The notes beneath the pieces are model-generated. The model did not search any database. It was not told the DNA's origin and saw only the letters and a program-made list of their open reading frames with translations. The position numbers and the translations under genes are program-made. This document shows, in pieces, positions 1,093 to 21,818 of a stretch of DNA of 27,766 nt. The stretch's first letter is position 1. Each line of letters begins with the position of its first letter. Source of the DNA: Nitrospirota bacterium (GTDB lineage: Bacteria > Nitrospirota > Thermodesulfovibrionia > Thermodesulfovibrionales > SM23-35); contig JACUUX010000038.1 of assembly GCA_014859105.1 (NCBI GenBank), positions 1-27,766 on the forward strand, given 5' to 3'.

Positions 1093-2364
1093 ATGCAAAA
1101 TATGAATAAAGATTCAAGAAAATATGAAAGAAGGCCTTTTTCTCAGATTATCAATTATTCCATCAGTACACTCGATTCCAAAGAACGAAAGTTGCTGAAT
1201 TTAAAGGGAAATACCTTTGACATCAGTGAAACTGGAGTAGGTATCTATACAGACTATCCTCTGGAACCCGGCCATTTGCTCTGGTTCAATGAAGTGATAG
1301 CAGATAAAGCTGGTTTTGTAAAATGGTGTGCAAAGCTTGACGATGGTTATAGAGTTGGAGTTGAGTTAGAAGTAACACAAGTCAAACGCCTTAATGAAGC
1401 AACGGAAATATTCAATCAGAGACTTGAAGAAATAGAAAAAAGATGTCTCGATCCTGAGGAAAATCCGGAAGAACTTTTACAGGCAACAATTAAAGCTATC
1501 GATGAAGTATTGATTTACTGTAAAGAATTCGAGATGGCAGTGAAAGACAAAGAAATAATTCGTGACGCTCGTACACGCTTCAGAGAAAAAACCAACCCAA
1601 TTTTGTCTAAAAGTTATTGTATAAACCGTGCGCGAACATGGCCTCAGGGATACCAGGGGGATTATAAAACACTGGAAACTGGCTATAAGAATAGCCCTCT
1701 ATCTGAAGGCATAGGATATTATCTTGATTTGTATTTACTGAATGCAGATCTTGCTCATGCTGTAAGAAACAGGATAAAAAAGCTCGAAAACATACTAAAA
1801 GATGAACTACAAAAGAGACAACAACCTTCTGTCTTGAATATTGCATGCGGTTCGTGCCGTGAGGTTTCTACATTAGCGCATGATATTGAAAAATCAGGTG
1901 CTAAATTCACATGTATAGATTTGGACAATGATGCCCTTGCTTTTGCTGCAAGCCGTTTATCGTATACTAATATTTCACCTCTTACATCAAATCAGATTGT
2001 ACTTCGTAAGTACAATGCACTCAGGATGTTCGACGATGAGTTAAATATGAATGAATTCGGAAATCAGGACATCATTTATAGTGTCGGGTTTTTTGACTAT
2101 CTGCAATCTGATTTCCTTGCTAATCTTTTAAAGGCCCTTTACAGACTGCTTAAACCCGGAGGGGTATTAATAACTTCCTTTAAGGATGCAGAAAAATACA
2201 GGTATCATGACTACCATTGGATTGTTGACTGGGACGGGTTTTTGCAGCGTACCGAGGCAGATTTCTGGAGAATATTTGAAGATGCTAAAATTCCAATTTA
2301 TTCAATAACCGAGACACGTGAAGATTCAGGGATAATTGTTTTCTACATAATATCTAAACAGTAG
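1093..2364 (+). CDS. PilZ-domain / class I SAM-dependent methyltransferase fusion protein
   Basis: 423 aa ORF with SD (gaggagtaagtt-ATG). The N-terminus carries the two PilZ c-di-GMP-binding motifs (RKYERRPF as RxxxR; DISETGVGI as D/NxSxGG). The C-terminal half has Rossmann MTase motifs (LNIACGSCRE motif I, CIDLD acidic post-I, LKPGGVLITSF motif II/III). Confidence 0.8.
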   Translation: MQNMNKDSRKYERRPFSQIINYSISTLDSKERKLLNLKGNTFDISETGVGIYTDYPLEPGHLLWFNEVIADKAGFVKWCAKLDDGYRVGVELEVTQVKRLNEATEIFNQRLEEIEKRCLDPEENPEELLQATIKAIDEVLIYCKEFEMAVKDKEIIRDARTRFREKTNPILSKSYCINRARTWPQGYQGDYKTLETGYKNSPLSEGIGYYLDLYLLNADLAHAVRNRIKKLENILKDELQKRQQPSVLNIACGSCREVSTLAHDIEKSGAKFTCIDLDNDALAFAASRLSYTNISPLTSNQIVLRKYNALRMFDDELNMNEFGNQDIIYSVGFFDYLQSDFLANLLKALYRLLKPGGVLITSFKDAEKYRYHDYHWIVDWDGFLQRTEADFWRIFEDAKIPIYSITETREDSGIIVFYIISKQ

Positions 2365-2953: not shown

Positions 2954-4228
2954 ATGAATAGAAATGTTGTAATTACAGGTATTGGGATTCTCTCTTCCAT
3001 AGGAATCGGGAAAGAAAATTTCTGGGATGTACTATTCAAGGGTAAAACAGGTTTTAAAGAAATAACTCTGTTTGATACCTCTGCTTTGAATGTCCATATA
3101 GCAGGAGAAATTAGTGATTTTGACCCCGTTGCCTTTCTGGGCAAAAAAGGACTCCGTACACTTGACAGGAGCACAAGACTTATAAATTCTGCTGCTAAGC
3201 TTGCCATAGAAGATGCAAATCTGCAAATTACAGAAGAGAATGCTCATCTTACGGGTGTCTCTATCGGAACAACCTTTGGAAGTCTCCATAGTATCTCACA
3301 GTTCGACCGTGAAGGGCTCATCGAAGGCCCTAAATATGTAAACCCATCACATTTTCCGAATACAGTTATAAACTCTCCTGCAAGTCAGGTCTCAATACGT
3401 TTTACGATAAAGGGGTTCAATACGACTATATCTACAGGCTTCTGTGCAAGCCTTGATGCCGTTTCATATGCTGCTGATTTTATAAAATTAAACAGGGCGG
3501 ATGTTGTTCTTGCAGGCGGTGTTGAAGAATTATGCGAAGAGACTTTCCTCGGATTTCACAACCTCGGATGTTTATCGGGATTTGATGGTTCAGAACCTCT
3601 TTGCTGTCCATTTGATGCAAGAAGGAACGGTGTAATCCTTTCTGAAGGAGCGGCTGTCCTAATTCTTGAAGATGAAGAACATGCATTAAGAAGAGGTGCA
3701 AGTATTATGGCAAAGATATCAGGTTATGGTAATTCTTTTGATCCATCACCCCCCTTTAATTCCCCCCTTGGTAAGGGGGGATACAGAGGGGTTGAGGAAT
3801 TCATAGTTGATGGAAAAGGATTAAGAAATGCCATTACCCTCGCCTTACAGGATGCATCTCTCCATCCTGAAAATATAGATTATATTTCTGCATCTGCGAA
3901 CTCAACAAAAGTACTTGACAGAATGGAAACAAATGTTATCAAAGAGGTTTTCGGAAATCATGCTTATAATATTCCGGTGAGTTCGATTAAATCGATGGTT
4001 GGTGAGTCTTTTTCTGCTTCAGGAGCATTGGCAATTGTGGCTGCAATAGGTGCGATGCAAAGAGGAATAGTTTTACCTACAGTTAATTACACTGAAAAAG
4101 ACCCTGAATGCGACCTTGATTATGTTCCAAACACAGCAAGACAGAAACATATAAACAATGTGCTTATAATATCATCTGATCCATATGGCAATAATGCAGC
4201 TATAATATTAGGAAAGCACGATGCATGA
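2954..4228 (+). CDS. Beta-ketoacyl-ACP synthase-like protein lacking both catalytic histidines (CLF/KS-beta-like partner), with in-frame GC-rich element insertion
   Basis: 424 aa with a thiolase-fold KAS N-terminus (MNRNVVITGIGILSSIGIG) and KAS C-terminal signature (PTVNYTEKDPECDLDYVPN). The candidate nucleophile Cys is retained (TGFCAS). The HGTGT His position reads SASANST and the GHxxGAAG His position reads GESFSASG. The stop overlaps the start of the downstream fabZ-like gene (ATGCATGA). Confidence 0.8.
   Translation: MNRNVVITGIGILSSIGIGKENFWDVLFKGKTGFKEITLFDTSALNVHIAGEISDFDPVAFLGKKGLRTLDRSTRLINSAAKLAIEDANLQITEENAHLTGVSIGTTFGSLHSISQFDREGLIEGPKYVNPSHFPNTVINSPASQVSIRFTIKGFNTTISTGFCASLDAVSYAADFIKLNRADVVLAGGVEELCEETFLGFHNLGCLSGFDGSEPLCCPFDARRNGVILSEGAAVLILEDEEHALRRGASIMAKISGYGNSFDPSPPFNSPLGKGGYRGVEEFIVDGKGLRNAITLALQDASLHPENIDYISASANSTKVLDRMETNVIKEVFGNHAYNIPVSSIKSMVGESFSASGALAIVAAIGAMQRGIVLPTVNYTEKDPECDLDYVPNTARQKHINNVLIISSDPYGNNAAIILGKHDA
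3745..3798. repeat. Family-B GC-rich palindromic element inserted in-frame in KS-like gene
   Basis: cacccccctttaattccccccttggtaaggggggatacagaggggttgagg is a poly-C/poly-G hairpin (cccccctt-ggtaa-gggggga) embedded in otherwise AT-rich coding sequence. It encodes PSPPFNSPLGKGGYRGVEE, an insertion relative to the KAS fold. Confidence 0.7.
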
Positions 4229-4712
4229 TCCAGGATGCAAGCAACTTGATTTTGAACAAATAAAAAAACTCATCCCTCAACGTTTTCCCTTCATCATGAT
4301 TGATAAGGTTCTTGAAGTTGAACCGGGTAAACATGCAGTCTCAGTTAAAAATGTTTCAGGTAATGACATATTCTTTCTCGGTCATTTCCCTGATATCGCA
4401 ATCATGCCCGGGGTTGCAATTATAGAAGCCATGGCACAGACTGCAATAATTATGTTTGCTGTCGGGCAAAAAGAAAATAATCCTTCCTCACCCCCCTTTA
4501 GCAAACCAATCTATTTTCTCGGATCAGTTAAAGCAAGGTTCTACCATCCGGTAGTCCCTGGAGACCAGTTAAAAATAAACGCGGTGAACGTAAAATCACT
4601 GCCAACCGGTGCTTATGTATCAGCAGAAGCATTTGTTAATGATAAAAAAGTTTCAGAAGCAGAACTTGTTTTTAGTGTCAAGGAGAAAGGTCAATTATTC
4701 CCTCCCCCTTGA
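4221..4712 (+). CDS. fabZ: 3-hydroxyacyl-ACP dehydratase, FabZ-like hotdog-fold protein
   Basis: 163 aa with canonical FabZ motifs (IPQRFPFIMIDKV; LGHFPDIAIMPGVAIIEAMAQ with catalytic His and Glu). It is translationally coupled to the upstream KS-like gene. It contains an extra SSPPFSKP segment encoded by tcaccccccttt (4488-4499). Its last codons (FPPP-stop) lie inside a GC-rich repeat. Confidence 0.85.
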   Translation: MHDPGCKQLDFEQIKKLIPQRFPFIMIDKVLEVEPGKHAVSVKNVSGNDIFFLGHFPDIAIMPGVAIIEAMAQTAIIMFAVGQKENNPSSPPFSKPIYFLGSVKARFYHPVVPGDQLKINAVNVKSLPTGAYVSAEAFVNDKKVSEAELVFSVKEKGQLFPPP

Positions 4713-4768
4713 CGGAGAAGTACATATTAATCCCCTCCCCATTGACGGGGGAGGGTAAGGGTGGGGGT
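4700..4768. repeat. Family-B GC-rich palindromic element at fabZ-like 3' end and intergenic region
   Basis: ccctccccc ttgacgg ... cccctcccc-attgac-gggggagggtaagggtgggggtg. The hairpin cccctcccc/gggggaggg shares the gagggtaagggtg core with the 7096-7156 element. It overlaps the fabZ-like stop codon at 4710-4712. Confidence 0.7.
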
Positions 4769-4818
4769 GACTAATAATTGAACAGGCTGCAAAATATAGC
4801 TAAAAATCTAATGAAGTT

Positions 4819-4847
4819 TTGACAAATAGTGAGGGGGGTAAGATAAA
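4819..4847 (+). promoter_or_regulatory. Candidate sigma70-like promoter for fabF-like gene
   Basis: TTGACA at 4819-4824 and GATAAA at 4842-4847 with 17 nt spacing. An SD (ggag) lies before the ATG at 4881. Weak -10. Confidence 0.25.
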
Positions 4848-4880
4848 TTTCTTTATTAATAATAAGAGTAATGGAGTAAT

Positions 4881-6128
4881 ATGCTCAACAATCATCGTGT
4901 AGTTATAACCGGTCTCGGTGTTATCTCTTCCATCGGTATAGGCTGGGAGGAATTCTGGGACAATCTTCTCAAAGGGAAATCAGGAATAAGTCCTGTGACA
5001 TCTTTTGATACCACTAATCACATTACTCACAACGGCGGCGAAGTTAAAAACTTTAAGCCTGAAGAATTCATTCCAGAAGAAAAAATTAAATTACTTAACA
5101 GATCATCACAACTCGCCTTTGCAGCAGCAAAGCTTGCAATTGAGGATGCTTATTTGTCCCAAGAAAATTACCCCTCCCCCCTCCCCCTCCCTCAAGGGGA
5201 GGGGGCGAGGGGGAGGGTTGGCATCTGTATAGGAACAACTACAGGGTCGATACAGGCTATTGAGCATATTAATGATAGAATAATCAGTAATAAAGAAATA
5301 GGCAAAGAATTAATAAGTCAACTGCCACCTCATACTACTCCTTCAACGATAGCAAGAGAATTTGATTTAAATGGTCCTAATTTTATGTTTTCCACTGCCT
5401 GTGCAGCAGGCAATTATGCTATAGGTTATGGCTTTGATCTTATACGTTCTAAAAGGGCTGACGTTATTATTGCCGGAGGTTCAGACCCTTTCTCACGGAT
5501 ATCTTTCACAGGGTTCAATCAATTTTCTGTATCTGCTCCTGAAAAGTGTCAGCCTTTTGATAAAAACAGAAAAGGTATGATGGTAGCTGAAGGTGCTGGG
5601 ATTCTTGTTCTTGAATTACTGGAAATTGCTATAAGAAGAAATGCACCTATATATGCTGAGATATCAGGTTATGGTCTAAGCTGTGATGCAGAGCATATGA
5701 CGCAACCTTCTGTCGACGGTATTTCGGAATGTATGATAAAAGCAATGCGTGAAGCTAAAATCGAAACAGAAGATGTAGATTATATATGTGCGCATGGAAC
5801 TGGAACAACTTCTAATGATAAAACGGAATGTGCTGCAATTAAAGAGGTCTTTGGACCACTATATAAAAAAATGCCTGTAAGCTCTATAAAATCAATGCTC
5901 GGACATCCAATGGGTGCTGCATCAGCACTTGAGGCAATTGCATGTGCACTTGCAGTAAAAAATGACATTATTCCTCCAACTATAAATTATGAGACACCCG
6001 ACCCCGAATGTGATATAGATTGCGTTCCAAATAAATCAAGGCAACATCCTGTAAATATAGCTTTGAATAATTCTTATGCTTTTGGTGGGAATAATGCTTG
6101 TTTAGTGGTTAAAAAATTTATAGAATAA
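4881..6128 (+). CDS. Beta-ketoacyl-ACP synthase II-like (FabF-type) condensing enzyme with complete Cys-His-His triad, carrying in-frame GC-rich insertion
   Basis: 415 aa. Active-site Cys in FSTACAAGNYAIG, first His in ICAHGTGTTSNDKTE, Lys and second His in IKSMLGHPMGAASALE, and C-terminal NSYAFGGNNACLVV. Confidence 0.85.
   Translation: MLNNHRVVITGLGVISSIGIGWEEFWDNLLKGKSGISPVTSFDTTNHITHNGGEVKNFKPEEFIPEEKIKLLNRSSQLAFAAAKLAIEDAYLSQENYPSPLPLPQGEGARGRVGICIGTTTGSIQAIEHINDRIISNKEIGKELISQLPPHTTPSTIAREFDLNGPNFMFSTACAAGNYAIGYGFDLIRSKRADVIIAGGSDPFSRISFTGFNQFSVSAPEKCQPFDKNRKGMMVAEGAGILVLELLEIAIRRNAPIYAEISGYGLSCDAEHMTQPSVDGISECMIKAMREAKIETEDVDYICAHGTGTTSNDKTECAAIKEVFGPLYKKMPVSSIKSMLGHPMGAASALEAIACALAVKNDIIPPTINYETPDPECDIDCVPNKSRQHPVNIALNNSYAFGGNNACLVVKKFIE
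5170..5217. repeat. Family-B GC-rich palindromic element inserted in-frame in fabF-like gene
   Basis: cccctcccccctccccctccctcaaggggagggggcgagggggaggg is a near-perfect poly-C/poly-G palindrome. It encodes PSPLPLPQGEGARGRVG, which is not part of the conserved KAS fold. Confidence 0.7.
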
Positions 6129-6152: not shown

Positions 6153-6632
6153 ATGGCTGGAAATATTGAAAAAGAAGCATGTAAGAATATAATTATGAAC
6201 AGCTTTAAGACATATAGCCTTACAACTGATGAAAAACAGGAAATAAAACATCTTATAAAGGCGGAATTAGAAAAACATAATGAAATTGCCTTTGCCTATA
6301 TTTATGGTTCATTTATTGAACCCGAGATGCCTTTTTTCAGAGATATAGATATAGGTATTTACCTCATAGATTATAAAGACGCCGATTGTTTGAAATATGA
6401 AATTGAGTTATCCATTGAATTGGAAAAATGTCTCCAGTACAAATATCCAGTTGATTTAAGAGTTATAAATAAATCAGATATTTTATTTGTGCATAATGTT
6501 ATTCAGGGTGAATTGCTTTTTATAAGAGATGAAGATTTATGGACTGATTTCGTAGTATATGTTTCTTTAAAATACAATGATATAGCCTCTGTATTTAATC
6601 ACTACTTCAAGGAGGCTTATATAGAAAGATGA
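6153..6632 (+). CDS. mntA: Nucleotidyltransferase-domain antitoxin (MntA/MNT family)
   Basis: 159 aa with the minimal nucleotidyltransferase motif (YIYGSF ... RDIDIGIY, i.e. GSx(n)DxD). Its stop overlaps the start of the downstream HEPN gene by 4 bp. Confidence 0.75.
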   Translation: MAGNIEKEACKNIIMNSFKTYSLTTDEKQEIKHLIKAELEKHNEIAFAYIYGSFIEPEMPFFRDIDIGIYLIDYKDADCLKYEIELSIELEKCLQYKYPVDLRVINKSDILFVHNVIQGELLFIRDEDLWTDFVVYVSLKYNDIASVFNHYFKEAYIER

Positions 6633-7048
6633 GTTTGGATAAGGTTAAGATAAAAGCAAGATTTGAGGATATACAAAAGGCTATTGATAGACTTTCTGAG
6701 TTTACAAAGATTGACAAAAATTCATTTCTTTCGAATGAGGATTTTATCCATATAGCCCGTTCCCATCTTCTTATTGCTTCGGAAGCATCTATTAACATCT
6801 GCTACCATATTGCAGCAAAAAGGCTAAAAAGGGCACCAGCCGAATACAGTTCGTGTTTTGAATTATTGCAAAGGCATAAGCTTATATCAGAGGAGTTAGC
6901 ACTCCATCTTATCAAACTAATCGGGCTCAGAAACAGAATGGTCCATCGCTATGAAGAGATAGACTACGGTTTCATATATGACAATTTTAAAGAGATTATA
7001 GAAAACTTTAGAAAACTTATTAATGAAGTCTCAAGTTTGATAATTTGA
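6629..7048 (+). CDS. hepT: HepT-like HEPN-domain toxin (DUF86)
   Basis: 139 aa with the Rx4-6HxY HEPN motif (RNRMVHRY) near the C-terminus. Paired with the upstream MNT-type gene. Confidence 0.75.
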   Translation: MSLDKVKIKARFEDIQKAIDRLSEFTKIDKNSFLSNEDFIHIARSHLLIASEASINICYHIAAKRLKRAPAEYSSCFELLQRHKLISEELALHLIKLIGLRNRMVHRYEEIDYGFIYDNFKEIIENFRKLINEVSSLII

Positions 7049-7095: not shown

Positions 7096-7205
7096 CCCCT
7101 CACCCTCACCCTTACCCTCTCCCACAAGGGGAGAGGGTAAGGGTGAGGGTGAGGGGTGCAGGGGTGTGTACCCATCCCTTGATGGGAGGGGATAAAGGGG
7201 AGGGT
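7096..7205. repeat. Family-B GC-rich palindromic elements (two hairpins), intergenic
   Basis: 7096-7123 (cccctcaccctcacccttaccctctccc) pairs perfectly with 7129-7156 (gggagagggtaagggtgagggtgagggg), giving a roughly 28 bp stem with a 5 nt loop. A second hairpin, cccatccc-ttgat-gggagggg, lies at 7171-7190. Confidence 0.85.
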
Positions 7206-7289
7206 GTTATATTTTCATGTTTCCTTGTGCCACTTGTGGCATGAGGGTTTGTTTAGGATTTAGATATTAGAATTCGGGATTTAAAAGAT

Positions 7290-7392
7290 ATGTATGATGC
7301 TGTAATCATAGGTACGGACATAAGCGGCCTTGTTTGTAGATGTTATCTGGCAAAGGCAGGAAAAATGGGACGTCATGAGCATTTAATACTTG
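7290..7392 (+). pseudogene. Degenerate duplicate of the 5' end of the downstream CrtI-like oxidoreductase gene (gene remnant)
   Basis: atgtatgatgctgtaatcataggtacggacataagcggccttgtttgtagatgttatctggcaaaggcagg is about 80% identical to 8076-8150 (atgtatgacgccataatcataggtgctggcataggaggccttgtatgcggatgttatctcgcaaaggctgg). The translation MYDAVIIGTDISGLVCRCYLAKAG has a ruined GxGxxG and terminates after 34 codons. Confidence 0.7.
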
Positions 7393-7452
7393 TTAATTAA
7401 CATCCAAAATGCTAAGTTATTTTTGAGGAAATCAAGAAGAAGGAGAAGAAAA

Positions 7453-7698
7453 ATGGTCAGCAAAAAAACCTATAAAGAGCGGATAGTAATTGATCCTGAA
7501 ATTCACTTTGGAAAGCCTTGTGTGGCTGGCACACGAATTCCAGTAGAAAATGTGCTTGAATTAGTTCAGGAAAACATTCCTTTTAGCGAAATTGTGGAAA
7601 AATATTATCCCGACCTTGAGATTGAAGATGTTAAAGCTTGTGTTAGATATGCAACAGATTTGGTTTGTTCGGAAGAAATTCATGTTGGAAAAACTTAA
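7453..7698 (+). CDS. DUF433-family small protein (putative antitoxin)
   Basis: Core HFGKPCVAGTRIPVENVLE is typical of DUF433. Likely start is MVSKKTYKE at 7453 after the purine-rich SD gaagaaggagaagaaaa. The six-frame ORF extends upstream to 7390 via TTG. Confidence 0.7.
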   Translation: MVSKKTYKERIVIDPEIHFGKPCVAGTRIPVENVLELVQENIPFSEIVEKYYPDLEIEDVKACVRYATDLVCSEEIHVGKT

Positions 7699-8054
7699 TG
7701 CGTCTACTTACAGATCAGGACGTGTATAAAATAACAGTAGAACAGCTTAAAAAATGGGGCCATGATGCAATAACCGCTAAAGAGCTTGGTATGCAACAAG
7801 CAGCAGATAGAGATTTACTAAAGAAAACTATTGAAACAAATCGGTTGCTTATTACAAGGGATAAGGATTTTGGGGCACTTGTTTTCTTAGAAGAATCATT
7901 AAATACTGGAGTCATTCTTCTAAGAGTTACTCCAATAACTGTTGAAGATGTACATCGGGAACTTTATCGTCTCTTTCAGGAACATACCGAAGAGGAATTA
8001 AAACATTTATTCTGTGTTGTTGAGCCTCATCGGCATCGAATTCGCCGTTTATAG
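7698..8054 (+). CDS. DUF5615-family PIN-like protein (putative toxin partner of DUF433)
   Basis: ATG at 7698 overlaps the upstream stop (TAATG). MRLLTDQDV ... ITRDKDFG matches the N-terminus and acidic core of DUF5615/Mut7-C-like PIN proteins that pair with DUF433. The six-frame ORF starts earlier at 7665. Confidence 0.65.
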   Translation: MRLLTDQDVYKITVEQLKKWGHDAITAKELGMQQAADRDLLKKTIETNRLLITRDKDFGALVFLEESLNTGVILLRVTPITVEDVHRELYRLFQEHTEEELKHLFCVVEPHRHRIRRL

Positions 8055-8075
8055 TATGGTAAAGCGTAATAAAAT

Positions 8076-9497
8076 ATGTATGACGCCATAATCATAGGTG
8101 CTGGCATAGGAGGCCTTGTATGCGGATGTTATCTCGCAAAGGCTGGCATGAAGGTGCTTATCTGCGAGCAGCATTATAAACCGGGAGGTTATTGCACATC
8201 CTTTACAAGACAGGGTTTTACTTTTGATGCTGCTCCTCACTGTTTTGGATCTTACAGAAAAGATGGAATGATGAGAAAAATCCTTCAAGACTTAGAAGTA
8301 GATAAAAAATTAAATATAATAAGACCCGACCCTTCAGATATTATAATGACACCTGATTATGAAGTCATCTTCTGGAATGATTTCGAAAGGACCACAGAGG
8401 GATTTCAAAGAATGTTTCCTGAAGATCGCACTAATATCAGGAATTTCTTCACCCTGTTAATGGATACCGATCCTAACTCCTTCTCTAGAATGAAGAACCG
8501 TACCTTCAAAGAATTATTAGATCAATATTTAACTAATGTAAAGTTGAAGTCGATCCTATCCTTTCCATTTCTGGGAATCGGAGGTTTGCCTTCGTCCATG
8601 ATATCTGCCTTCATAGGAGCAAAACTCTTCTCCGAATTTTTATTTGACGGTGGGTATTATCCCGAAGGTGGCATGCAGGCGCTGCCTGATGCTTTAGCAG
8701 AGAGATTAAAAGAGTTCGGCGGTGAGTTGAGACTCTCCTGTCCTATCAAAAAAATACGAGTAAGAGAGAATAGAGTTACGGGCGTAATCTCAGAAAAAGA
8801 CGGCTTCATGCCTTCAAGATATGTGATTTCGAACTGTGATGCCAGACAGACTTTTTTCAAACTCATAGGCGGGAGAAAGGTTGAGAGAGAGTTCTCTCAG
8901 AGATTAAAGAAGATGGTGCCCTCTATATCGAATTTCATTGTCTATATGGGCATAGACGGTCATTTTGAAACCCTGCCGAGACCAGGAACCACCCTTTCCT
9001 TTTTTAGATACTATGACATAGAGAAGGCATACCGGTCAGTACTAAAAGGCGACTTCGAAGGCTACGGCGGATATATGCTGCGAGCCTCCCGGGATACCCC
9101 GGTTATCATAGCAATCATTCCTGTACCATTTAAAAACAAAACCTATTGGAAGGATCACAAGCAAAGATTATCGGAATATCTAATAGAGAGAATAGAGAGA
9201 GATTTGATTCCGAATCTCACAGCCCATATCGTATATAAAGACGCATCCACTCCATCTACCTTAAACAGATATACTTTAAACTATAAAGGTGCCTCCTTTG
9301 GCTGGGCTGGTATACCTTCGCAATTAGCAGTCCCGGGCCTGAGAAAGTGCTCGTATACAGAGGGGCTCTATTTGACAGGACATTGGACTACACTTGGAGT
9401 AGGAATCTCTGGAGTGGCGTATGTTGGGTATGACACCGCGAAGATTCTTATAAGGAGAGAGGTAAATAGGCAAAACATCTCATTTTTGATAAAATAA
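8076..9497 (+). CDS. NAD(P)/FAD-dependent oxidoreductase, phytoene desaturase (CrtI)/amine-oxidase family
   Basis: 473 aa. N-terminal dinucleotide-binding motif YDAIIIGAGIGGLVCGCYLAKAGMKVLICEQ ... PGG, and a C-terminal FGWAG ... LYLTGHWT motif characteristic of the CrtI-like family. Confidence 0.75.
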   Translation: MYDAIIIGAGIGGLVCGCYLAKAGMKVLICEQHYKPGGYCTSFTRQGFTFDAAPHCFGSYRKDGMMRKILQDLEVDKKLNIIRPDPSDIIMTPDYEVIFWNDFERTTEGFQRMFPEDRTNIRNFFTLLMDTDPNSFSRMKNRTFKELLDQYLTNVKLKSILSFPFLGIGGLPSSMISAFIGAKLFSEFLFDGGYYPEGGMQALPDALAERLKEFGGELRLSCPIKKIRVRENRVTGVISEKDGFMPSRYVISNCDARQTFFKLIGGRKVEREFSQRLKKMVPSISNFIVYMGIDGHFETLPRPGTTLSFFRYYDIEKAYRSVLKGDFEGYGGYMLRASRDTPVIIAIIPVPFKNKTYWKDHKQRLSEYLIERIERDLIPNLTAHIVYKDASTPSTLNRYTLNYKGASFGWAGIPSQLAVPGLRKCSYTEGLYLTGHWTTLGVGISGVAYVGYDTAKILIRREVNRQNISFLIK

Positions 9498-9503
9498 AAA
9501 CTA

Positions 9504-11645
9504 GTGGACAAAGATAAATATATACAGCAGGAGCTATTGGAAACAATCCGGTCGTTCACCGGTTTACTCTTTCTCATCGGTGCCCCAGCAATATTGTTGT
9601 TGAGTCTGCTCGATTATTTTGTGACACCCGAGAATTTTAGAACCTTCCTTGTTTATCGGTTGGTCGCTACCTTACTCTACGTGACATTATATTTCATATT
9701 CAAAAGAGTAAAAAAATATCCCCTCTTCTTCCTCATAATGGGCACCGTCATAGTTTCGTCTATGGTCGAGTTGATGATACTTTCTTTTGGGGGTCATCAG
9801 TCGACCTATTACGCGGGCATGATCATCGTGTTTATCTTCCTCTTCGGATTGCTCCCCTTCTCTCTCAGAATATCCTTACTTCTCGCTTCAATCATCTATG
9901 CTATTTATCTGATTCCTATCTTAGTCTTGGACCAGATCACGAACATGCGCGTCTTTATGAACAATAACATCTTTCTCTTTGCTACCCTCATGAGTGTACT
10001 TATCTGGAGACATATCAATTACAAGATTCACCTCAAAAAGCTTTCCCTCGAATATGACCTTTCCCAAGAACAGAAACAACTTAAAACTTACTCCACCCAG
10101 CTTGAAGAACTTGTCCAACAAAGAACAAAGGAGCTTGCCATCTCAGAAAAATGGCACAGGTCAATTTTTGACAATGCTACCGAAGGAATTATGGTGCTTG
10201 ATAACAACGGTGCGATTGTTAACGTTAATAAAATGGCATGCGACCTACATGGCTTTACCGGAAATGCTTTAGCAGGTGTAAATATCGGGCTTCTTGAAGT
10301 AAAAGCAGACAAGGAAAAAATTAATGAGAGGTTATCGAGAATTTTAAATGGTGAAACGCTTACTTATGAAACAGAACATTATAGAAAAGACGGTGAGAAG
10401 GTTCTTTTAGAAATCAGCTCAAACCGTATAGATAGCGAAGGCCAGACATATATCCAATGCTTCTGCAGGGATATAACTGAAAAGAAGAAGATTCAGGAGC
10501 AGTTGATACATTCACAGAAAATGGAATCAGTCGGCGCACTCGCCGGAGGCATCGCTCATAACTTCAATAATATTTTGACCACGATTCTCGGATATTCAGA
10601 ATTGTTGATTGAATACAGCAATCTTGATGACTCATCAAAACAGAAGGTAGAAAATATTGAGAGTTCTGCAAGAAAGGCAGGAGTAATGGTCTCGAAACTC
10701 CTGGGTTTTGCAAGGAGAGAAAAACATGAAATCCTTCCTTTAAACCTGCATCATGTAATCAATGATTCAGTTAAACTCTTTGAGGGTGTGCTTGACAAGA
10801 AGATAGGATTGAAGATAAATCTGTGCAGTAATAATCCAATTATCGAAGGAGATCCGAATCAGGTCGAGCAGGTTATTATGAACCTCATAGTTAATGCAAA
10901 GGATGCAATGCCTGACGGAGGCCTTATAACAATAAAAACTGACATAATCGAGATTGGAAAGGATAAAACCGATACGCCGGCTTACATAGAACAAGGAAAA
11001 TATGTCGTATTAACCGTGTCTGACACAGGCTGTGGCATACCTAAAAATATAATCAATAAAGTATTTGATCCTTTCTTCACAACTAAAGAGAAAGGGAAAG
11101 GAACAGGCCTTGGACTTGCTATGGTTTACGGGATTGTCAAAGATCACAGAGGCTATATTTCTGTTCAAAGTGAGATAGACAAGGGCACAATTTTTGACAT
11201 ATACCTCCCTGTTTCAGAAAGAGTTGTTCACAGGGTTACAAAACCACAAATCTTTTCGATAGAAGGACATGAAAATATACTTGTAGTCGATGATGATAAA
11301 GACGTATTAAACTTTATTAAGGATATCCTTGAAACGCATGGATATACTGTTACGTCTGCAAATAACTCCCTGACAGCAATTGACATATTCAGGAATCTTT
11401 CCGGAAAAATTTCGCTTGTAATAACAGACGTACTTATGCCACTGATGGAAGGAGGAGAACTAATAAAACAATTGAAAGAAATAAAACCGGATATCAAGAT
11501 AATCATCATTTCCGGCTACAGCGATGAAAAAATTACAAAAGACATGGTCGATGTGTTTATCAGGAAACCTTTTGAAAGTATTGAACTCCTGTCAGCGGTC
11601 AGACGGCTCCTCGATGCACAGGGCAGGAGATCACCACTTTATTAA
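9504..11645 (+). CDS. Hybrid sensor histidine kinase / response regulator with multi-TM N-terminal sensor and PAS domain
   Basis: 713 aa with a GTG start 7 nt after the oxidoreductase stop. About 6 hydrophobic helices in the first 170 aa, then a coiled-coil and PAS (ATEGIMVLDNNGAIVNVN). HisKA H-box (GGIAHNFNNILTTILGYSELL). HATPase_c (IVNAKDAMPDGG, GTGLGLAMVYGIV). C-terminal receiver (ILVVDDDKD ... ITDVLMP ... IIISGY). Confidence 0.85.
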   Translation: MDKDKYIQQELLETIRSFTGLLFLIGAPAILLLSLLDYFVTPENFRTFLVYRLVATLLYVTLYFIFKRVKKYPLFFLIMGTVIVSSMVELMILSFGGHQSTYYAGMIIVFIFLFGLLPFSLRISLLLASIIYAIYLIPILVLDQITNMRVFMNNNIFLFATLMSVLIWRHINYKIHLKKLSLEYDLSQEQKQLKTYSTQLEELVQQRTKELAISEKWHRSIFDNATEGIMVLDNNGAIVNVNKMACDLHGFTGNALAGVNIGLLEVKADKEKINERLSRILNGETLTYETEHYRKDGEKVLLEISSNRIDSEGQTYIQCFCRDITEKKKIQEQLIHSQKMESVGALAGGIAHNFNNILTTILGYSELLIEYSNLDDSSKQKVENIESSARKAGVMVSKLLGFARREKHEILPLNLHHVINDSVKLFEGVLDKKIGLKINLCSNNPIIEGDPNQVEQVIMNLIVNAKDAMPDGGLITIKTDIIEIGKDKTDTPAYIEQGKYVVLTVSDTGCGIPKNIINKVFDPFFTTKEKGKGTGLGLAMVYGIVKDHRGYISVQSEIDKGTIFDIYLPVSERVVHRVTKPQIFSIEGHENILVVDDDKDVLNFIKDILETHGYTVTSANNSLTAIDIFRNLSGKISLVITDVLMPLMEGGELIKQLKEIKPDIKIIIISGYSDEKITKDMVDVFIRKPFESIELLSAVRRLLDAQGRRSPLY

Positions 11646-12626
11646 TACAGAAGACCATGTAAGACCGCCGCCGAATGCCTCAAAAAGAATATAATCTCCA
11701 TTTTTTATCCTTCCGGATATTAAAGCTTCATCCAGGGCAATAGGAATGGAAGCAGCTGAAGTATTCCCATATTTATATAAGTTTACAATAAATTTTGACA
11801 TGGGCAAACCCAACCTTTCGGCAGTTGCCTGTATTATTCTCAGATTCGCCTGATGCAGAACAAGAAGTGAAAGCTGTGAAGGCTTCAACCCCTGTTCCTC
11901 AAGTGTTCGTAATACAAGGTCTTCCAGTGTTCTTACCGCAACTTTAAAAGTTTCATTGCCTTTCATCTTAATGTAATGAAGTCTTTTTTCGACAGTTTCT
12001 GCGGCAGTGGGATTCCTGGAACCACCTCCCGGAATGTGTAAGAGATCCCACATCCTTCCATCAGAATTTATATGCACTGAGAGAATACCTCTGTCTTCGT
12101 CCGTCGGTTCAAGAATTGCAGCACCGGCCCCGTCACCAAAAAGAACACATGTTGTTCTGTCATGCCAGTCCGTAATCTTTGAAAGCACTTCTGTTCCGAC
12201 AACCAGGATTCTTTTATACATTTCTGATTTAATAAAACTGTCTGCAATGCAGAAGCCGTATAGGAATCCTGAACATGCTGCATTTATATCGAACCCAACA
12301 GCATTTGAAGCGCCCAGTTTAGCCTGAAGAAAACATGCTGTTGAAGGGAAAGGCATGTCGCCGGACACCGTTGCAACAATAATCATGTCTATATCTTCCG
12401 GCCTTAATCCAGCTCTATCAAGAGCTACCTTTGATGCTTCATACGCAAGGTCTGATGCAGCCTGACTCTCATCAGCTATTCTTCTTTCCTTAATTCCCGT
12501 CCTTTCTGTAATCCATTCATCAGAGGTATCAAGCATCTTTTCAAGGTCTCGATTCGTAAGAATCTTATCGGGGAGATATGATCCGGTCGCGATTATTCTA
12601 CTTCTTGGCAACTTTAATCCTTTCAT
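11631..12626 (-). CDS. fabH: 3-oxoacyl-ACP synthase III
   Basis: 331 aa. ATGSYLPDKILTNRDLEKMLDTSDEWITERTGI N-terminus, active-site Cys in NAACSGF, and HQAN / GNTSAAS motifs. Confidence 0.9.
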   Translation of the reverse strand: MKGLKLPRSRIIATGSYLPDKILTNRDLEKMLDTSDEWITERTGIKERRIADESQAASDLAYEASKVALDRAGLRPEDIDMIIVATVSGDMPFPSTACFLQAKLGASNAVGFDINAACSGFLYGFCIADSFIKSEMYKRILVVGTEVLSKITDWHDRTTCVLFGDGAGAAILEPTDEDRGILSVHINSDGRMWDLLHIPGGGSRNPTAAETVEKRLHYIKMKGNETFKVAVRTLEDLVLRTLEEQGLKPSQLSLLVLHQANLRIIQATAERLGLPMSKFIVNLYKYGNTSAASIPIALDEALISGRIKNGDYILFEAFGGGLTWSSVLIKW

Positions 12627-13626
12627 GGTGTGATATGTCCTTTTCTATTGCAGATGAAATAATTTCATAGACCTTTTTCTTCGCAAAATCTGCCGCAACC
12701 CTTATGGCATTCCTGATTGCTTTTGCCGTTGATCGCCCATGACTTATTATACATGTCCCGTTAATCCCGAGAAGCGGTGCCCCTCCATATTCATCATAAT
12801 CTGTTTTCTTTTTGAATTTCTTCAAAGCAGGTTTCATTAAAAGATACCCTATACGTCCTGCCGTTAGATTAGCAACCTCTCTCTTGAGCATTTTAATGAG
12901 AGCGTCAGCAAGCCCCTCGCTTGTCTTCAAAATAATATTACCTGTAAATCCATCACATACAATAACATCTGTATCACCTGTAAATATATCTTTACCATCG
13001 ACGTTACCAATAAAATTTATGTCAGCTTCTTTAAGAAGTTTAAAGGTTTCCTTTGTAAGCTCGTTCCCCTTTGTATCCTCTTCTCCGGTGCTAATTAACG
13101 CAATCCTGGGCTCCGGCCTTCCGAGAATAAGCCTGCAATATGTACTGCCCATTAAAGCAAATTGAAGAAGGTTACGAGGGGTACAGTGAAGATTTGCACC
13201 TGCATCGATCAAAACAAAAGGTGACCTCAAAGTCGGCATTATTGCTGCTATAGCTGGCCTATCAACTAAATCTGCTGTGCCAAGCAGTAATAAAGCTGTA
13301 GCCATTACAACACCGGAGTGACCGGCACTTACAAAAGCATCCGCCTCACCGTTTTTTACAAGCTCCATTCCCCTTCTTATAGATGAATCTTTTTTCTTTC
13401 TTATTGCAAAAGAAGGAGATTCATCCATTCTGACAAACTGTGAGGCATGCTTTATTGATATACTCTTGGGAGGATATCTTTTATTGTCAAGGTCTCTTTT
13501 TAGAGTTTGCTCATCACCAACGAGGATAATCTGAGTATCCTCAAAATTGTTAACGGTTTCAACAGCGCCCTCGATATTAACAGCAGGGGCATAATCGCCT
13601 CCCATCGCATCAAGGGCTATTCTCAT
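12598..13626 (-). CDS. plsX: Phosphate acyltransferase PlsX
   Basis: 342 aa. MRIALDAMGGDYAP N-terminus, HGRS motif and CDGFTGN. Sits between rpmF and fabH as in the canonical operon. Confidence 0.9.
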   Translation of the reverse strand: MRIALDAMGGDYAPAVNIEGAVETVNNFEDTQIILVGDEQTLKRDLDNKRYPPKSISIKHASQFVRMDESPSFAIRKKKDSSIRRGMELVKNGEADAFVSAGHSGVVMATALLLLGTADLVDRPAIAAIMPTLRSPFVLIDAGANLHCTPRNLLQFALMGSTYCRLILGRPEPRIALISTGEEDTKGNELTKETFKLLKEADINFIGNVDGKDIFTGDTDVIVCDGFTGNIILKTSEGLADALIKMLKREVANLTAGRIGYLLMKPALKKFKKKTDYDEYGGAPLLGINGTCIISHGRSTAKAIRNAIRVAADFAKKKVYEIISSAIEKDISHHERIKVAKK

Positions 13627-17748: not shown

Positions 17749-19034
<1,286 letters not shown>

Positions 19035-19035
<1 letters not shown>

Positions 19036-19361
19036 TGGGTACATCATCGAATCTTTTAAGAAAACAGGTAATATCGGAGATTAGAAAAAGAAGGCTCGTG
19101 CTCTTTACTTTTATCCTTCTGAGTTTCATTTATGTTTCCATAAGCTTGATATTCGGAGACATGGGTTTCCTCAGGCACAGGGAGTTGCATAAAACAAAAA
19201 TTAACCTTGAAAAACAGATAAAAGAGATTGAGAATGAAAATGAGCAGTTAAAAACACAGATTAACTCGCTAGAAGAAGATCCTTTTTATATGGAAAAACA
19301 TGCGAGAGAGGATTTCGGATTAGCCAAGCCTGACGAATATATCTTCCTTTATGACAGATAG
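19035..19361 (+). CDS. ftsB: Septum formation initiator family protein (FtsB/DivIC-like)
   Basis: 108 aa with an N-terminal TM helix, then a coiled-coil (LEKQIKEIENENEQLKTQINSLEEDPFYMEKHARE). The position directly after eno is conserved for ftsB. Confidence 0.75.
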
Positions 19362-21525
19362 GCCTCTTTATATATCATTCCTCTGGCACATGCACCAGCC
19401 TTATTACAAAGATCCGTTTACAGGTGTTTACCGGTTACCATGGGTAAGACTTCATGGTACAAAAGATTACCTCGACATGGTTGAGATCCTTGCCGAATTT
19501 CCTGGGATAAAACAGACATTCAATTTTACCCCCTCTTTACTGGATCAGCTTTTAGATTATACAGAAAACAATGCAAAAGACCACTTTTTAGAGTTAACTC
19601 TTAAAAAGGCATCCGAACTTAATATCCAGGAGCGACAGTTGTTAATCGAGAATTTCTTTCTTGCAAACTGGAATAATATGATAAAACCGTTTCCAAGATA
19701 CTATGAACTTCTCAAGAAGAGAGGATTACATCTCGTTCAAAGCGAGCTTATGAAAGTTGCAAAATATTTCAATGATAGCGATTTTCTTGATTTACAGGTA
19801 CTCTTTAATCTCTGCTGGATAGACCCCTTGTTCAGAGAGAAGGACCCTTTCCTTTCAATGCTTGTTGATAAAGGCAGGGACTTTACAGAAGAGGAAAAAA
19901 ATTTATTGATTTCAAAGCAACTTTCTATTATGAAACAAATAATCCCGCGGTATCGTGAAATAGCAGAAAAAGGTCAGATCGAACTTTCTGTTTCACCATA
20001 TTATCACCCCATCCTTCCCTTACTTTGTGATACAAACATAGCGAAGGTCTCCATGCCTGATATTAAACTCCCTCAAAAAAGATTCTCATATCCTGAAGAT
20101 GCAGAAACCCAGATCAAAATGGGTCTTGATTATTTTGAAAAGATATTCGGATATAGACCAGTTGGCATGTGGCCTTCGGAGGGATCTGTAAGTGAAGACG
20201 TCTTGAGAATTGTCTCAAAAGAAGGTATTAAATGGGTCGGCACTGATGAAGATGTCCTTTCTGTTTCATCAGGTGAACAAATCAGAGACTCCTCAAGAGA
20301 TATTATCGAGCCATCTGTTTTATACAAACCTTATATTTTTGAAAATGTCTCGATTATTTTCCGGGATCATATTCTTTCTGATCTTATCGGGTTTGAATAT
20401 TCAAATTGGGATGCTAAAAAGTCAGCCGAAGACCTTATAAACAGGCTTTTAAAAATCCGTGAAGTTATAGCGGAAGATATGCCTCATCTCGTATCCCTGA
20501 TACTCGATGGAGAAAATGCATGGGAATACTATAAAAATGATGGGAATGACTTTATAAGGTATCTCTACGAAGGACTATCCAGAGAGAAAAGATTAAAGAC
20601 TGTCACTGTTACAGAATATCTTACAGAATTTGATAAAGGGAAACCCTTAACAAGACTTCATCCGGGTTCCTGGATTAACTCAAATTTCAGTGTATGGATT
20701 GGACACGAAGAAGACAACACAGCCTGGGATTATCTGAAAGAGACAAGAGAAGAACTCGAATTATTCCAGAAAATGAGTCCGGAGAAAGACCTTTACGAAG
20801 CATGGAAGGCTATCTACATAGCAGAGGGAAGTGACTGGAACTGGTGGTACGGGGATGAACATACTACTGAAAACCAGAAGGACTTTGATGAACTTTTCAG
20901 ATTAAACCTCATGAAAGTCTATAAAGAGACCGGAAAGGATGTCCCCCGTCATTTGCTTATCCCTGTGCTGAGAGAAGACAGAAGCGTTTCCCCTACAGTT
21001 ACGATAAGAGGTTTTATAGAACCAGAAATCGATGGCGTTGTTACAAGCTACTACGAATGGTATCAGGGTGCATATATAGATATCAAGAAATTCGGCGGAA
21101 GTATGCATAAGGCAGAAAGTATTTTATCAGGTCTATATTATGGCTTTAATAAGGATGAACTCTTTCTGAGATTAGATCCTTTGATACCTTTCGGTGAAAT
21201 AAAGAATGATATAATTTTTTGTATTAATCTAATAAAGCCTTCCCTGCTGAAGGTTATAATTTCTATAAGGCCATCTGTAAAAGCAGAACTTCTCATTAAG
21301 GATACTTCCGGGTGGAAAAAACTAAAGGATATTAATGATGTAGCTATTAAGGATATTTTTGAAATAGCGATGCCATTCAGAGATTTACAGGTTAAGGAAA
21401 AAGATGAAATATACCTGAATGTATCTATTATCAAAAATGGTGAAGAAATCGAGAAGTGCCCTTGCAGGGGATACGTCTCAATAACTGTACCCACACCCGA
21501 TTTCGAGGCCATGATGTGGTATTGA
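19351..21525 (+). CDS. Glycoside hydrolase family 57 protein (alpha-glucan branching/processing enzyme-like) with long C-terminal extension
   Basis: 724 aa. The N-terminal FLWHMHQPYY hallmark of GH57, then the catalytic region (DGENAWEY, EGSDWNWWYGDEH). About 200 residues beyond typical GH57 branching enzymes. Confidence 0.75.
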   Translation: MTDRPLYISFLWHMHQPYYKDPFTGVYRLPWVRLHGTKDYLDMVEILAEFPGIKQTFNFTPSLLDQLLDYTENNAKDHFLELTLKKASELNIQERQLLIENFFLANWNNMIKPFPRYYELLKKRGLHLVQSELMKVAKYFNDSDFLDLQVLFNLCWIDPLFREKDPFLSMLVDKGRDFTEEEKNLLISKQLSIMKQIIPRYREIAEKGQIELSVSPYYHPILPLLCDTNIAKVSMPDIKLPQKRFSYPEDAETQIKMGLDYFEKIFGYRPVGMWPSEGSVSEDVLRIVSKEGIKWVGTDEDVLSVSSGEQIRDSSRDIIEPSVLYKPYIFENVSIIFRDHILSDLIGFEYSNWDAKKSAEDLINRLLKIREVIAEDMPHLVSLILDGENAWEYYKNDGNDFIRYLYEGLSREKRLKTVTVTEYLTEFDKGKPLTRLHPGSWINSNFSVWIGHEEDNTAWDYLKETREELELFQKMSPEKDLYEAWKAIYIAEGSDWNWWYGDEHTTENQKDFDELFRLNLMKVYKETGKDVPRHLLIPVLREDRSVSPTVTIRGFIEPEIDGVVTSYYEWYQGAYIDIKKFGGSMHKAESILSGLYYGFNKDELFLRLDPLIPFGEIKNDIIFCINLIKPSLLKVIISIRPSVKAELLIKDTSGWKKLKDINDVAIKDIFEIAMPFRDLQVKEKDEIYLNVSIIKNGEEIEKCPCRGYVSITVPTPDFEAMMWY

Positions 21526-21535
21526 CCAAGACCCT

Positions 21536-21818
21536 TTTAATTCATAGCGAACTCTGTTCCAATAGTTGATTCATTAGGTTGTCATTCCCGCTTGTCGGGA
21601 ATCCTTCTGTTAACAAAGAAAGATTCTGGACAAGCCAGAATGACAGAATTAAAAATCTTAAACAACTTTTAAGATCTTTGATGATTAATAGCATAGCGAA
21701 AGGTTGCGGCTATCTATAAACCTTACATAATTTGCTCCGAAAATGTCATTCCGAGCGAAGCGAGGAATCTTGTCTTTGAGATTGCTTCAGGCTAAAGCCC
21801 TCGCAATGACATTTTTAT
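21536..21818. repeat. Family-A mosaic repeat, copy 2 (reverse orientation)
   Basis: 21538-21580 is the reverse complement of module M3 (aattcatagcgaactctgttccaat). 21581-21610 is M2rc (gtcattcccgcttgtcgggaatcc). 21612-21650 is M1rc (agattctggacaagccagaatgacagaatt). 21651-21695 is M5rc (cttaaacaacttttaagatctttgatgattaatagc). 21738-21815 is M4 (tgtcattccgagcgaagcgaggaatctt ... ccctcgcaatgaca). Confidence 0.8.

Follow-up and report, generated by a model that had tools for sequence, protein, structure and literature searches.

A probable Nitrospirota counterpart to Cluster I, the fatty-acid module of anammox bacteria

The gene trio and its nearest relatives

Three neighboring genes on a 27,766-nucleotide stretch of DNA from a Nitrospirota bacterium (GenBank JACUUX010000038.1, positions 1-27,766; the whole stretch is called the window here) encode a protein resembling a ketosynthase (KS), a FabZ-like dehydratase, and a second, intact KS. 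The trio is a real second module for chain building, made up of a catalytically complete ketosynthase, a partner that is catalytically dead, and a dehydratase of the putative short-chain type. Judging from sequence comparisons, the locus is probably (we would put the chance at about 0.8) the Nitrospirota counterpart, of the Thermodesulfovibrionales type, of the fatty-acid module known from anammox bacteria as Cluster I. Cluster I (kuste3603-3608) encodes an acyl carrier protein (ACP), amxACP; a dehydratase, amxFabZ; a ketosynthase and its partner, amxFabF2 and amxFabFmut (together amxFabFhet; 9S5H/9S5I); a flavoprotein of the phytoene desaturase kind (PDH); and a B12-dependent radical S-adenosylmethionine (SAM) enzyme. 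The trio in the window is as follows.

2954-4228, forward strand: triad-less KS-like protein (the dead KS), 424 amino acids, Pfam ketoacyl-synt N- and C-terminal domains; by PDB match and residue mapping, a partner resembling a chain-length factor and a homologue of amxFabFmut
4221-4712, forward strand: FabZ-type 3-hydroxyacyl-ACP dehydratase, 163 amino acids, Pfam FabA/FabZ; by PDB match and signature residues, of the amxFabZ kind
4881-6128, forward strand: catalytically complete KS (the active KS), 415 amino acids, Pfam ketoacyl-synt N- and C-terminal domains, with Cys174, His305, Lys337, His342, and gate Phe401; amxFabF2 homologue

All three open reading frames are real, as a preliminary description of this DNA had it, and on the strand given they carry the Pfam domains expected of them. 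That description also placed plsX and fabH on the minus strand at 11631-13626, and both are there, above their NCBIfam cut-offs. Its core reading, that an active KS, an inactive partner, and a dedicated dehydratase stand apart from the housekeeping fab genes, is supported by the homology to amxFabF2 and amxFabFmut.

For each of the three window proteins, and for the ACP encoded by related loci, the best match in the PDB is a Cluster I protein. The dead KS matches amxFabFmut (9S5H_C) with an E-value of 6e-117 (394 bits), as against about 1e-76 for the next-best FabFs (2.6e-76 for that of 4LS6) and 1.2e-41 (146 bits) for the actinorhodin chain-length factor (CLF), 1TQY_B. The active KS matches amxFabF2 (9S5H_B) at 6.2e-141, followed by Iga11 (6KXD_A) at 4.6e-100. 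The dehydratase finds the amxFabZ structures 8AYD (1.8e-36) and 7QV0 (1.1e-33), and the relatives' ACP finds amxACP (7QV0_D, 8.6e-17; also 9S5I_E and 7AUF). In identity, the dead KS shares 47-49% of its residues with amxFabFmut of Brocadia and Scalindua, the active KS 53% with anammox amxFabF2, and the dehydratase 44-48% with amxFabZ; taken over the KS pair, the anammox proteins are 47-54% identical to those of the window, while Brocadia and Scalindua differ less from one another (65-74% identity).

Against the NCBIfam models, the dead KS falls below both cut-offs (TIGR03150, 356.1 with a cut-off of 493.75; NF005589, 335.5 with a cut-off of 387). The active KS also falls below the fabF equivalog TIGR03150 (410.9) and lies barely above the FabF subfamily NF005589 (391.9). 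The dehydratase exceeds the cut-off of NF000582 (138.4; cut-off 113) and is under that of TIGR01750 (135.2; cut-off 155.15).

The triad-less partner

The preliminary description took the cysteine in the motif TGFCAS of the first protein to be a retained nucleophile, and since it found both catalytic histidines missing, it regarded the protein as the inverse of the usual CLF. Alignment to FabF and amxFabFmut shows this cysteine to be out of register. In gapless HMMER alignments covering about 100 residues around the motif, made to the FabF of Bacillus subtilis (4LS6), the FabF of Thermus thermophilus (1J3N), and the amxFabFmut of Brocadia fulgida (9S5H chain C), TGFCAS stands opposite TACATG in FabF and NGVTSS in amxFabFmut, with Phe163 at the position of the catalytic cysteine and Cys164 one residue beyond it (+1). 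Three independent MAFFT alignments give the same register. The loss of both histidines had been seen correctly: the first site is Ser314 (in ISASANST) and the second Glu351 (in GESFSASG), while the lysine, Lys346, is retained. Nothing of the triad therefore remains. A normal chain-length factor has lost it in the same way, and the pattern cannot be called inverse.

It is the pattern of amxFabFmut, where the partner likewise has a residue other than cysteine at the first site, one other than histidine at the second, glutamate at the third, and the lysine kept. The residue at the cysteine site is Phe in the window and Val, Thr, or Ile in anammox bacteria. The resemblance extends to the residues of the acyl tunnel: Phe134, Thr137, and Val138 of the dead KS correspond to Phe135, Thr138, and Val139 of B. 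fulgida, and their equivalents are invariant across 121 Nitrospirota and 117 anammox homologues. The glutamine that would mark a KS-beta of a type II polyketide synthase (PKS) is absent from the cysteine site, and 1TQY_B scores far below amxFabFmut in bits.

Perhaps the dead KS is just a pseudogene. This was considered and rejected: the reading frame is intact, its ratio of nonsynonymous to synonymous substitution rates (dN/dS) is about 0.1, and hundreds of homologues show no variation at Glu351, Lys346, Phe134, and Thr137.

The active ketosynthase and the dehydratase

Alignments confirm that the third gene encodes the full triad, Cys174, His305, and His342, together with Lys337. The gate residue Phe401 matches Phe394 (B. 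fulgida numbering), and Met337, Phe203, and most of the metal-site residues are conserved as well.

The dehydratase has the catalytic His (LGHFPD) and Glu (IEAMAQ) of FabZ, and Ile (QTAIIMF) in place of the canonical Gly of the tunnel. It has Tyr, a non-basic residue, at aligned position 96 and Leu, a hydrophobic one, at 115, both signatures of amxFabZ. In amxFabZ, the Ile that takes the place of the tunnel Gly restricts the enzyme to substrates of about C6-C8, and position 96 is non-basic and position 115 hydrophobic (PMC10139942).

The preliminary description also held that the genes of the trio are translationally coupled. This is true of the first junction, where the dead KS and FabZ overlap in ATGCATGA, the ATG of FabZ beginning at 4221 and the TGA of the KS-like gene occupying 4226-4228. 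It does not hold for the second, where FabZ and the active KS are 169 nucleotides apart and a repeat element lies between them. A four-nucleotide duplication (GCAA, window 4221-4250) pushed the ancestral ATG of FabZ out of frame, and because of it the gene now starts at 4221, seven codons upstream, which creates the overlap.

Phylogeny, fusions, and selection

Neighbor-joining trees were built from 119 sequences with 200 bootstraps and a limited sampling of canonical KSs. The triad-less proteins, most of which have Glu at the second histidine site, form one clade (191/200 bootstraps), and another (199/200) unites the partner KSs, those of Nitrospirota and Omnitrophota together with those of anammox bacteria (amxFabF2). 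These groupings are supportive rather than conclusive of kinship with the amx type.

Nature has also joined the two kinds of protein. Among the 150 best family representatives, 49 (within P0123-P0270) contain two KS domains in 700-900 amino acids, and 45 of these begin with an intact Cys-His-His KS and continue with a degenerate one. Such fusions lend indirect support to a physical pairing of the separate subunits.

In comparisons that include the window, dN/dS ranges from 0.04 to 0.15 over the three genes (dead KS, 0.09-0.13; FabZ, 0.04-0.06; active KS, 0.09-0.15). For the dead KS, the window branch together with its stem comes to about 0.12 by a three-point estimate and shows no relaxation.

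Conservation of the cluster in related genomes

Scanning one genome per species turned up at least 562 stretches that encode a relative. The best 80 of these come mostly from Nitrospirota, then from Omnitrophota and uncultured Planctomycetes. The dead KS, for which an exact-sequence look-up matched no record, has its closest homologues, at 71-82% identity, in metagenome-assembled genomes (MAGs) of Nitrospirota and Thermodesulfovibrionales. The window is thus of Nitrospirota and not of anammox origin. In a survey of the cluster, nine query proteins were mapped onto 87 loci, and 35 well-flanked Nitrospirota loci were counted. The usual order in Nitrospirota is methyltransferase (MTase), in many cases ketoreductase (KR), dead KS, FabZ, KS, ACP, PDH, and hybrid histidine kinase. 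Out of 35, the counts are KS 34, MTase 34, ACP 33, kinase 33, PDH 30, FabZ 30, KR 22, and radical-SAM 1. Thus five of the six Cluster I families are found clustered in Nitrospirota, in an order that differs from that of anammox bacteria. The window belongs to a subtype in which fabH-plsX follows the kinase convergently. The genes that flank the trio within the cluster are these.

1093-2364, forward strand: class I SAM-dependent MTase with a weakly PilZ-like N-terminus, first gene of the cluster; Pfam Methyltransf_12/25/11
8076-9497, forward strand: CrtI/phytoene-desaturase-family flavoprotein (PDH-like); Pfam Amino_oxidase and NAD_binding_8
9504-11645, forward strand: hybrid histidine kinase/response regulator, directly downstream of the cluster; Pfam PAS/HisKA/HATPase/REC in relatives

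The inclusion of the MTase and the CrtI-like gene in the locus, proposed from the window alone, is upheld by their conservation, the MTase lying upstream of the dead KS wherever it was counted. The N-terminal region of the MTase (1093-1380) is a borderline match to PilZ, a c-di-GMP-binding domain (22.0 bits; cut-off 22.5). The possibility that the enzyme is the structurally published SAM-methyltransferase of anammox bacteria was rejected, as the window MTase has no sequence relative in the PDB.

The PDH-like protein scores 169 bits against the NCBIfam model crtI_fam, under its cut-off of 238. It is only 48% identical to the PDHs of the window's closest relatives, the loci L006 and L007, but 66-70% identical to those of L020 and L029, and it is probably an oxidoreductase that tailors the chain. 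The hybrid histidine kinase, which follows PDH in the loci where it was counted and has a weak match to the membrane-sensor domain MASE8, may regulate the cluster.

The slot upstream of PDH varies among close relatives. The window has a toxin-antitoxin (TA) pair there, DUF433/DUF5615. L007 (4285-5595) and L039 (around 18208-19570) have a B12-binding radical-SAM gene, and L006 (14162-15022) has a CMAS-like methyltransferase. The window lacks the radical-SAM gene, and L007 and L039 are the only relatives with it.

One MAG, SMAG_U12291 (Thermodesulfovibrionales), contains two versions of the cluster, L015 and L031, with 71% identity between their dead KSs. One of the clusters has an upstream KR, and the contig bearing the other begins just before the dead KS. 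Either the genome has two paralogous clusters or the MAG is a binning mix.

Loss of the acyl carrier protein and insertions in the window

The preliminary description saw no ACP in the window, and this is so: tblastn of the window with the ACPs of two relatives finds nothing at E ≤ 10, and a six-frame search with a hidden Markov model built from 57 cluster ACPs reaches at best an E-value of 1.7. The absence is, however, a lineage-specific deletion and not a feature of the design. An amxACP-like gene is present in 44 of the 46 related loci with room for one, and the window is one of only two without. In L006 and L007, the KS is followed directly by an ACP of 81 amino acids (start LNNNIEKEIIKIIS; 12944-13189 in L006 and 3041-3286 in L007) and then by an MNT/HepT pair. 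What is left of the gene in the window, and what has entered the cluster around it, is listed below.

2365-2953: spacer between the MTase and the dead KS, 590 nucleotides, with short palindromic repeats (repeat analysis)
4733-4770: GC-rich palindromic repeat, resembling a miniature inverted-repeat transposable element (MITE), family D1, at the FabZ/KS junction (junction comparison with L007)
6153-6194, forward strand: what remains of the ACP gene, some 14 codons from its N-terminal end (MAGNIEKEACKNII), in an in-frame fusion with the gene for the MNT antitoxin (comparison with L006 and L007)
6153-7048, forward strand: MNT (Polbeta nucleotidyltransferase)/HepT TA pair, Pfam PF18765 and PF01934; also in L006 and L007
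7285-7360, forward strand: duplicated 5' fragment of PDH, repeat D3, 82% identical to 8071-8146
7390-8054: second inserted TA pair, DUF433/DUF5615 (Pfam)

The remnant MAGNIEKEACKNII starts 24 nucleotides after the KS gene, and the remaining 200 or so nucleotides of the ACP gene, including the codon for the phosphopantetheine-bearing Ser, are gone. A 15-nucleotide string, AATATTGAAAAAGAA, is common to the window and the 5' end of the relatives' ACP gene, after which the window passes into the ATG of MNT. Since the dedicated ACP is deleted and the operon invaded, the module must either borrow another ACP or have been switched off recently.

Further upheaval is visible downstream. The 76-nucleotide duplicate of PDH translates as MYDAVIIGTDISGLVCRCYLAKAG, which matches PDH N-termini, and since this copy of the 5' end lies upstream of the DUF433/DUF5615 pair, it suggests that the cassette arrived by recombination at the start of PDH. 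The D1 palindromes (CCCTCCCC…GGGGAGGG TAAGGGTGxGGGTGA) occur in four copies, one at the FabZ/KS junction, one inside the KS gene (5183-5220), and two after HepT (7115-7152 and 7170-7207). The junction copy replaced the C-terminus of FabZ (…KGQLFPPP), and the 8-nucleotide overlap of FabZ and KS, which is ancestral and seen in relatives, has given way to the present gap. The copy within the KS gene encodes an 11-residue in-frame insert (PSPLPLPQGEG…). The insert (PSPLPLPQGEGARG) has a degenerate 8-residue version at the same site in L006, and it looks like a MITE tolerated in a loop of the protein.

The spacer between the MTase and the dead KS measures roughly 1-300 nucleotides in relatives. In the window, it contains repeat families D2, D4, D5, D7, and D8, which recur at 21.5-21.8 kb and 25.4-25.7 kb. 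Short hairpin repeats (GTCATTCC…GGAATGAC) form arrays that fill intergenic DNA at 2480-2880, 21560-21790, and 25360-25700 and share longer blocks of about 150 nucleotides at 80-92% identity. Scans of the whole window with Rfam (at the gathering threshold) and for tRNAs gave no match, so the intergenic repeats are not known RNA families. Between 900 and 9600, promoter-like sites (23, with 24.9±4.6 in shuffled sequence) and terminator-like sites (11, with 6.4±2.6) are not above expectation.

Proposed mechanism

Our model leans on a preprint of May 2026 (10.64898/2026.05.19.726425) concerning the proteins of Kuenenia stuttgartiensis and B. fulgida, for which the heterodimer was shown. According to that work, amxFabF2 and amxFabFmut are inactive alone, co-purify if co-expressed, and together decarboxylate malonyl-amxACP and form acetoacetyl-ACP. 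In crystals of the heterodimer, the dead subunit has a tunnel that does not lead to a catalytic triad, and mutants of the partner at Phe135 and Val139 change the preference for chain length.

By analogy, the module in the window most likely works like amxFabFhet and amxFabZ, with one active site and an inert partner that shapes the tunnel. The active KS (4881-6128) would function only as a heterodimer with the triad-less protein (2954-4228). The latter would perform no chemistry, but its helix-loop-helix, with Phe134, Thr137, and Val138, would form part of the wall of the active subunit's acyl tunnel and bias chain length in the manner of a chain-length factor. The dimer would decarboxylate malonyl-ACP and condense the product with ACP-bound acyl chains. 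A ketoreductase would act next, encoded in the cluster in roughly 60% of the related loci and supplied here from elsewhere, and the FabZ-like enzyme, with its bulky tunnel Ile, would dehydrate short (about C4-C8) 3-hydroxyacyl-ACPs. The MTase and the CrtI-like flavoprotein might then tailor the chain into a specialized lipid. For the proteins of the window, the heterodimer, the decarboxylation, the effect on chain length, and the short-chain dehydration are inferred from 44-54% identity, the key residues, and the gene neighborhood. Since the anammox enzymes are reported to be specific for their own ACP, activity in this strain would depend on an ACP from elsewhere.

Several observations weigh against equating the locus with Cluster I. 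The heterodimer, the decarboxylation, and the effects on chain length and on short chains are known by experiment only from the anammox homologues. Orthology of the tailoring genes is unproven, as PDH is only 31-34% identical to the Cluster I PDH, and the rare radical-SAM protein (that of L007) only 28% identical to the anammox enzyme. The gene order differs. In the neighbor-joining tree, the dead KSs of anammox bacteria form a clade that does not stand as immediate sister to that of Nitrospirota. A simple count of net charge in the helix-loop-helix and partner-helix segments does not reproduce the electrostatic asymmetry of the anammox dimer. Finally, the very gene deleted from the window encodes the ACP on which, in anammox bacteria, the enzymes depend specifically (PMC10139942).

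Alternative explanations

This last point raises the question whether the module, whatever the identity of its genes, is at present a decaying and non-functional remnant in this genome. The damage is considerable: an internal deletion has left a stub of the ACP gene, which just one other of the 46 loci lacks; repeats have entered the FabZ/KS junction and the KS gene; the ancestral start of FabZ was displaced; and two TA insertions and a duplicated PDH fragment interrupt the operon. To this may be added that amxFabZ is inactive on canonical ACP in the anammox system (PMC10139942). However, every reading frame is intact and has a usable start, the dN/dS ratios are those given above, with no relaxation on the window branch of the dead KS, the insert in the KS is tolerated, since its degenerate form is shared with L006, which keeps its ACP, and the genome could encode another ACP at a different site. 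We regard present inactivity as unlikely. We give still less credence to the notion that Cys164 is a functional nucleophile after all, making the His-less protein an acyl-holding subunit or a priming transacylase. Cys164, beside the former nucleophile site, is indeed invariant in all 121 close Nitrospirota-type homologues, in which the first histidine site varies (Ser, Cys, Gly). But these sequences are at least 71% identical, so the invariance weighs little, and the equivalent residue is Thr, Ala, or Asn in the 117 anammox homologues and C, S, T, A, N, or V across the wider family. The cysteine is one residue off, the nucleophile position is occupied by Phe163, both histidines are gone, and the tunnel of the dead subunit, as seen in the anammox crystal structure, does not communicate with a catalytic triad.

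The trio might instead be the housekeeping FabF and FabZ of FAS II (the type II route to fatty acids) in this lineage, accompanied by an extra, degenerate paralogue. It adjoins plsX-fabH, in the window and in nine related loci, and the active KS and FabZ do exceed one NCBIfam cut-off each (the KS narrowly, NF005589; FabZ, NF000582). But the KS misses the fabF equivalog cut-off (410.9, when 493.75 is called for), the tunnel Ile of FabZ is expected to exclude long chains, and the nearest relatives of the proteins are anammox-specific paralogues that coexist with canonical FabF and FabZ. Moreover, the deletion of the ACP has been tolerated, when it would be lethal if this were the sole ACP, and one MAG appears to have two paralogous clusters (L015 and L031). 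We consider a housekeeping role improbable. Least credible of all is that the locus makes ladderane lipids as anammox bacteria do. What can be said for it is the homology to five of the six Cluster I families and the B12-binding radical-SAM gene beside PDH in L007 and L039. The window itself, however, has no such gene, it occurs in a single one of the 35 well-flanked loci (and there shares 28% identity with the anammox enzyme), and the lineage is Nitrospirota, ladderanes having been reported only from anammox bacteria. The counterpart of Cluster I, built on an active KS and an inert partner, remains the reading that we prefer.

Relation to known systems

With Cluster I, then, the module shares its best PDB matches, the tunnel Phe/Thr/Val, the gate Phe, the Ile signature of FabZ, and the clustering of the same gene families. 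It differs in its host, Nitrospirota rather than Brocadiia, and in its order, which in loci of the window type is dead KS, FabZ, KS, ACP, PDH and in anammox bacteria is ACP, FabZ, KS, dead KS, PDH, B12 radical-SAM. It adds an MTase and a hybrid histidine kinase, and in many relatives a KR, lacks the B12 radical-SAM gene, has lost the ACP in the window, and has no link to ladderanes.

The highly reducing type II PKS of ishigamide synthesis (Iga11 KS/Iga12 CLF; 6KXD) is similar in that a KS/CLF pair, with KR, dehydratase, and ACP, iterates on reduced chains. Among the PDB matches of the active KS, Iga11 comes second, and according to the preprint (10.64898/2026.05.19.726425) no structural homologue is closer to amxFabF2. 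In contrast, the top 60 PDB matches listed for the dead KS do not include Iga12, there are no amide-forming or polyene-specific genes, and the dehydratase is of the FabZ type. The KS-alpha/KS-beta of actinorhodin (1TQY) are likewise a heterodimer of an active KS and an inactive, tunnel-shaping homologue encoded by adjacent genes, but that CLF has Gln at the cysteine site, where the window has Phe, and primes by decarboxylation. The window has a dehydratase and lacks cyclases and aromatases.

Canonical FabF and FabZ have the same folds and chemistry, the KS triad, and the catalytic His and Glu of FabZ. Canonical FabF, however, is a homodimer with two active sites, and the window KS is under the equivalog cut-off; the window FabZ, for its part, has lost the tunnel Gly and has had the basic residues that bind ACP replaced. 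Heteromers of a KS and a KS-like protein with a hot-dog-fold partner are found as well in the pathways for cispentacin (AmcF/AmcG with AmcE) and aryl polyenes (ApeO/ApeC with ApeI/ApeP). All matches to the NCBIfam models of the former are sub-threshold (AmcF, 137 and 213 bits, cut-off 325; AmcE, 93 bits, cut-off 140). The FabZ homologues of related loci have precomputed matches, some weak or faint, to the ApeI-like and ApeP-like Pfam families. No other genes of either pathway are present.

Significance

Cluster I has been described as encountered exclusively in ladderane producers (PMC10139942) or unique to them (10.64898/2026.05.19.726425), and both sources treat it as central to ladderane formation. 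Surveys with antiSMASH (PMC9902471, PMC11968836) listed "ladderane" clusters in non-anammox phyla but took the analysis no further. Earlier, Rattray et al. (PMC2649909) had remarked on FabF paralogues that lack the triad and on synteny of other anammox fatty-acid clusters with Desulfotalea. Our search of the literature found no paper describing the Nitrospirota cluster.

From the window and about 60 Nitrospirota loci syntenic with it, conservation outside anammox bacteria is evident for a module of the KS/CLF pair, a FabZ of the short-chain type, the special ACP, and the enzyme resembling PDH. The shared core is not ladderane-specific. Outside anammox bacteria, the module usually comes without the radical-SAM gene, which points to the radical-SAM enzyme as the ladderane-specific step.

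Since this genome's copy of the module is eroded and lacks an ACP, the window alone is of limited value. Some of the cluster matches, however, have been assigned to Thermodesulfovibrio. This genus has cultured members, and lineages of this type may be easier than anammox bacteria for testing what the shared core does.

One may speculate, with more doubt than confidence, that the core of KS/CLF, FabZ, ACP, and PDH represents an older and widespread pathway of Nitrospirota, Omnitrophota, and other anaerobes, making short or unsaturated, possibly methylated acyl lipids under the control of a sensor kinase, to which anammox bacteria added the B12 radical-SAM enzyme. If this were true, then the organisms bearing L007 and L039, in which a radical-SAM gene stands beside PDH, could make related cyclized lipids.

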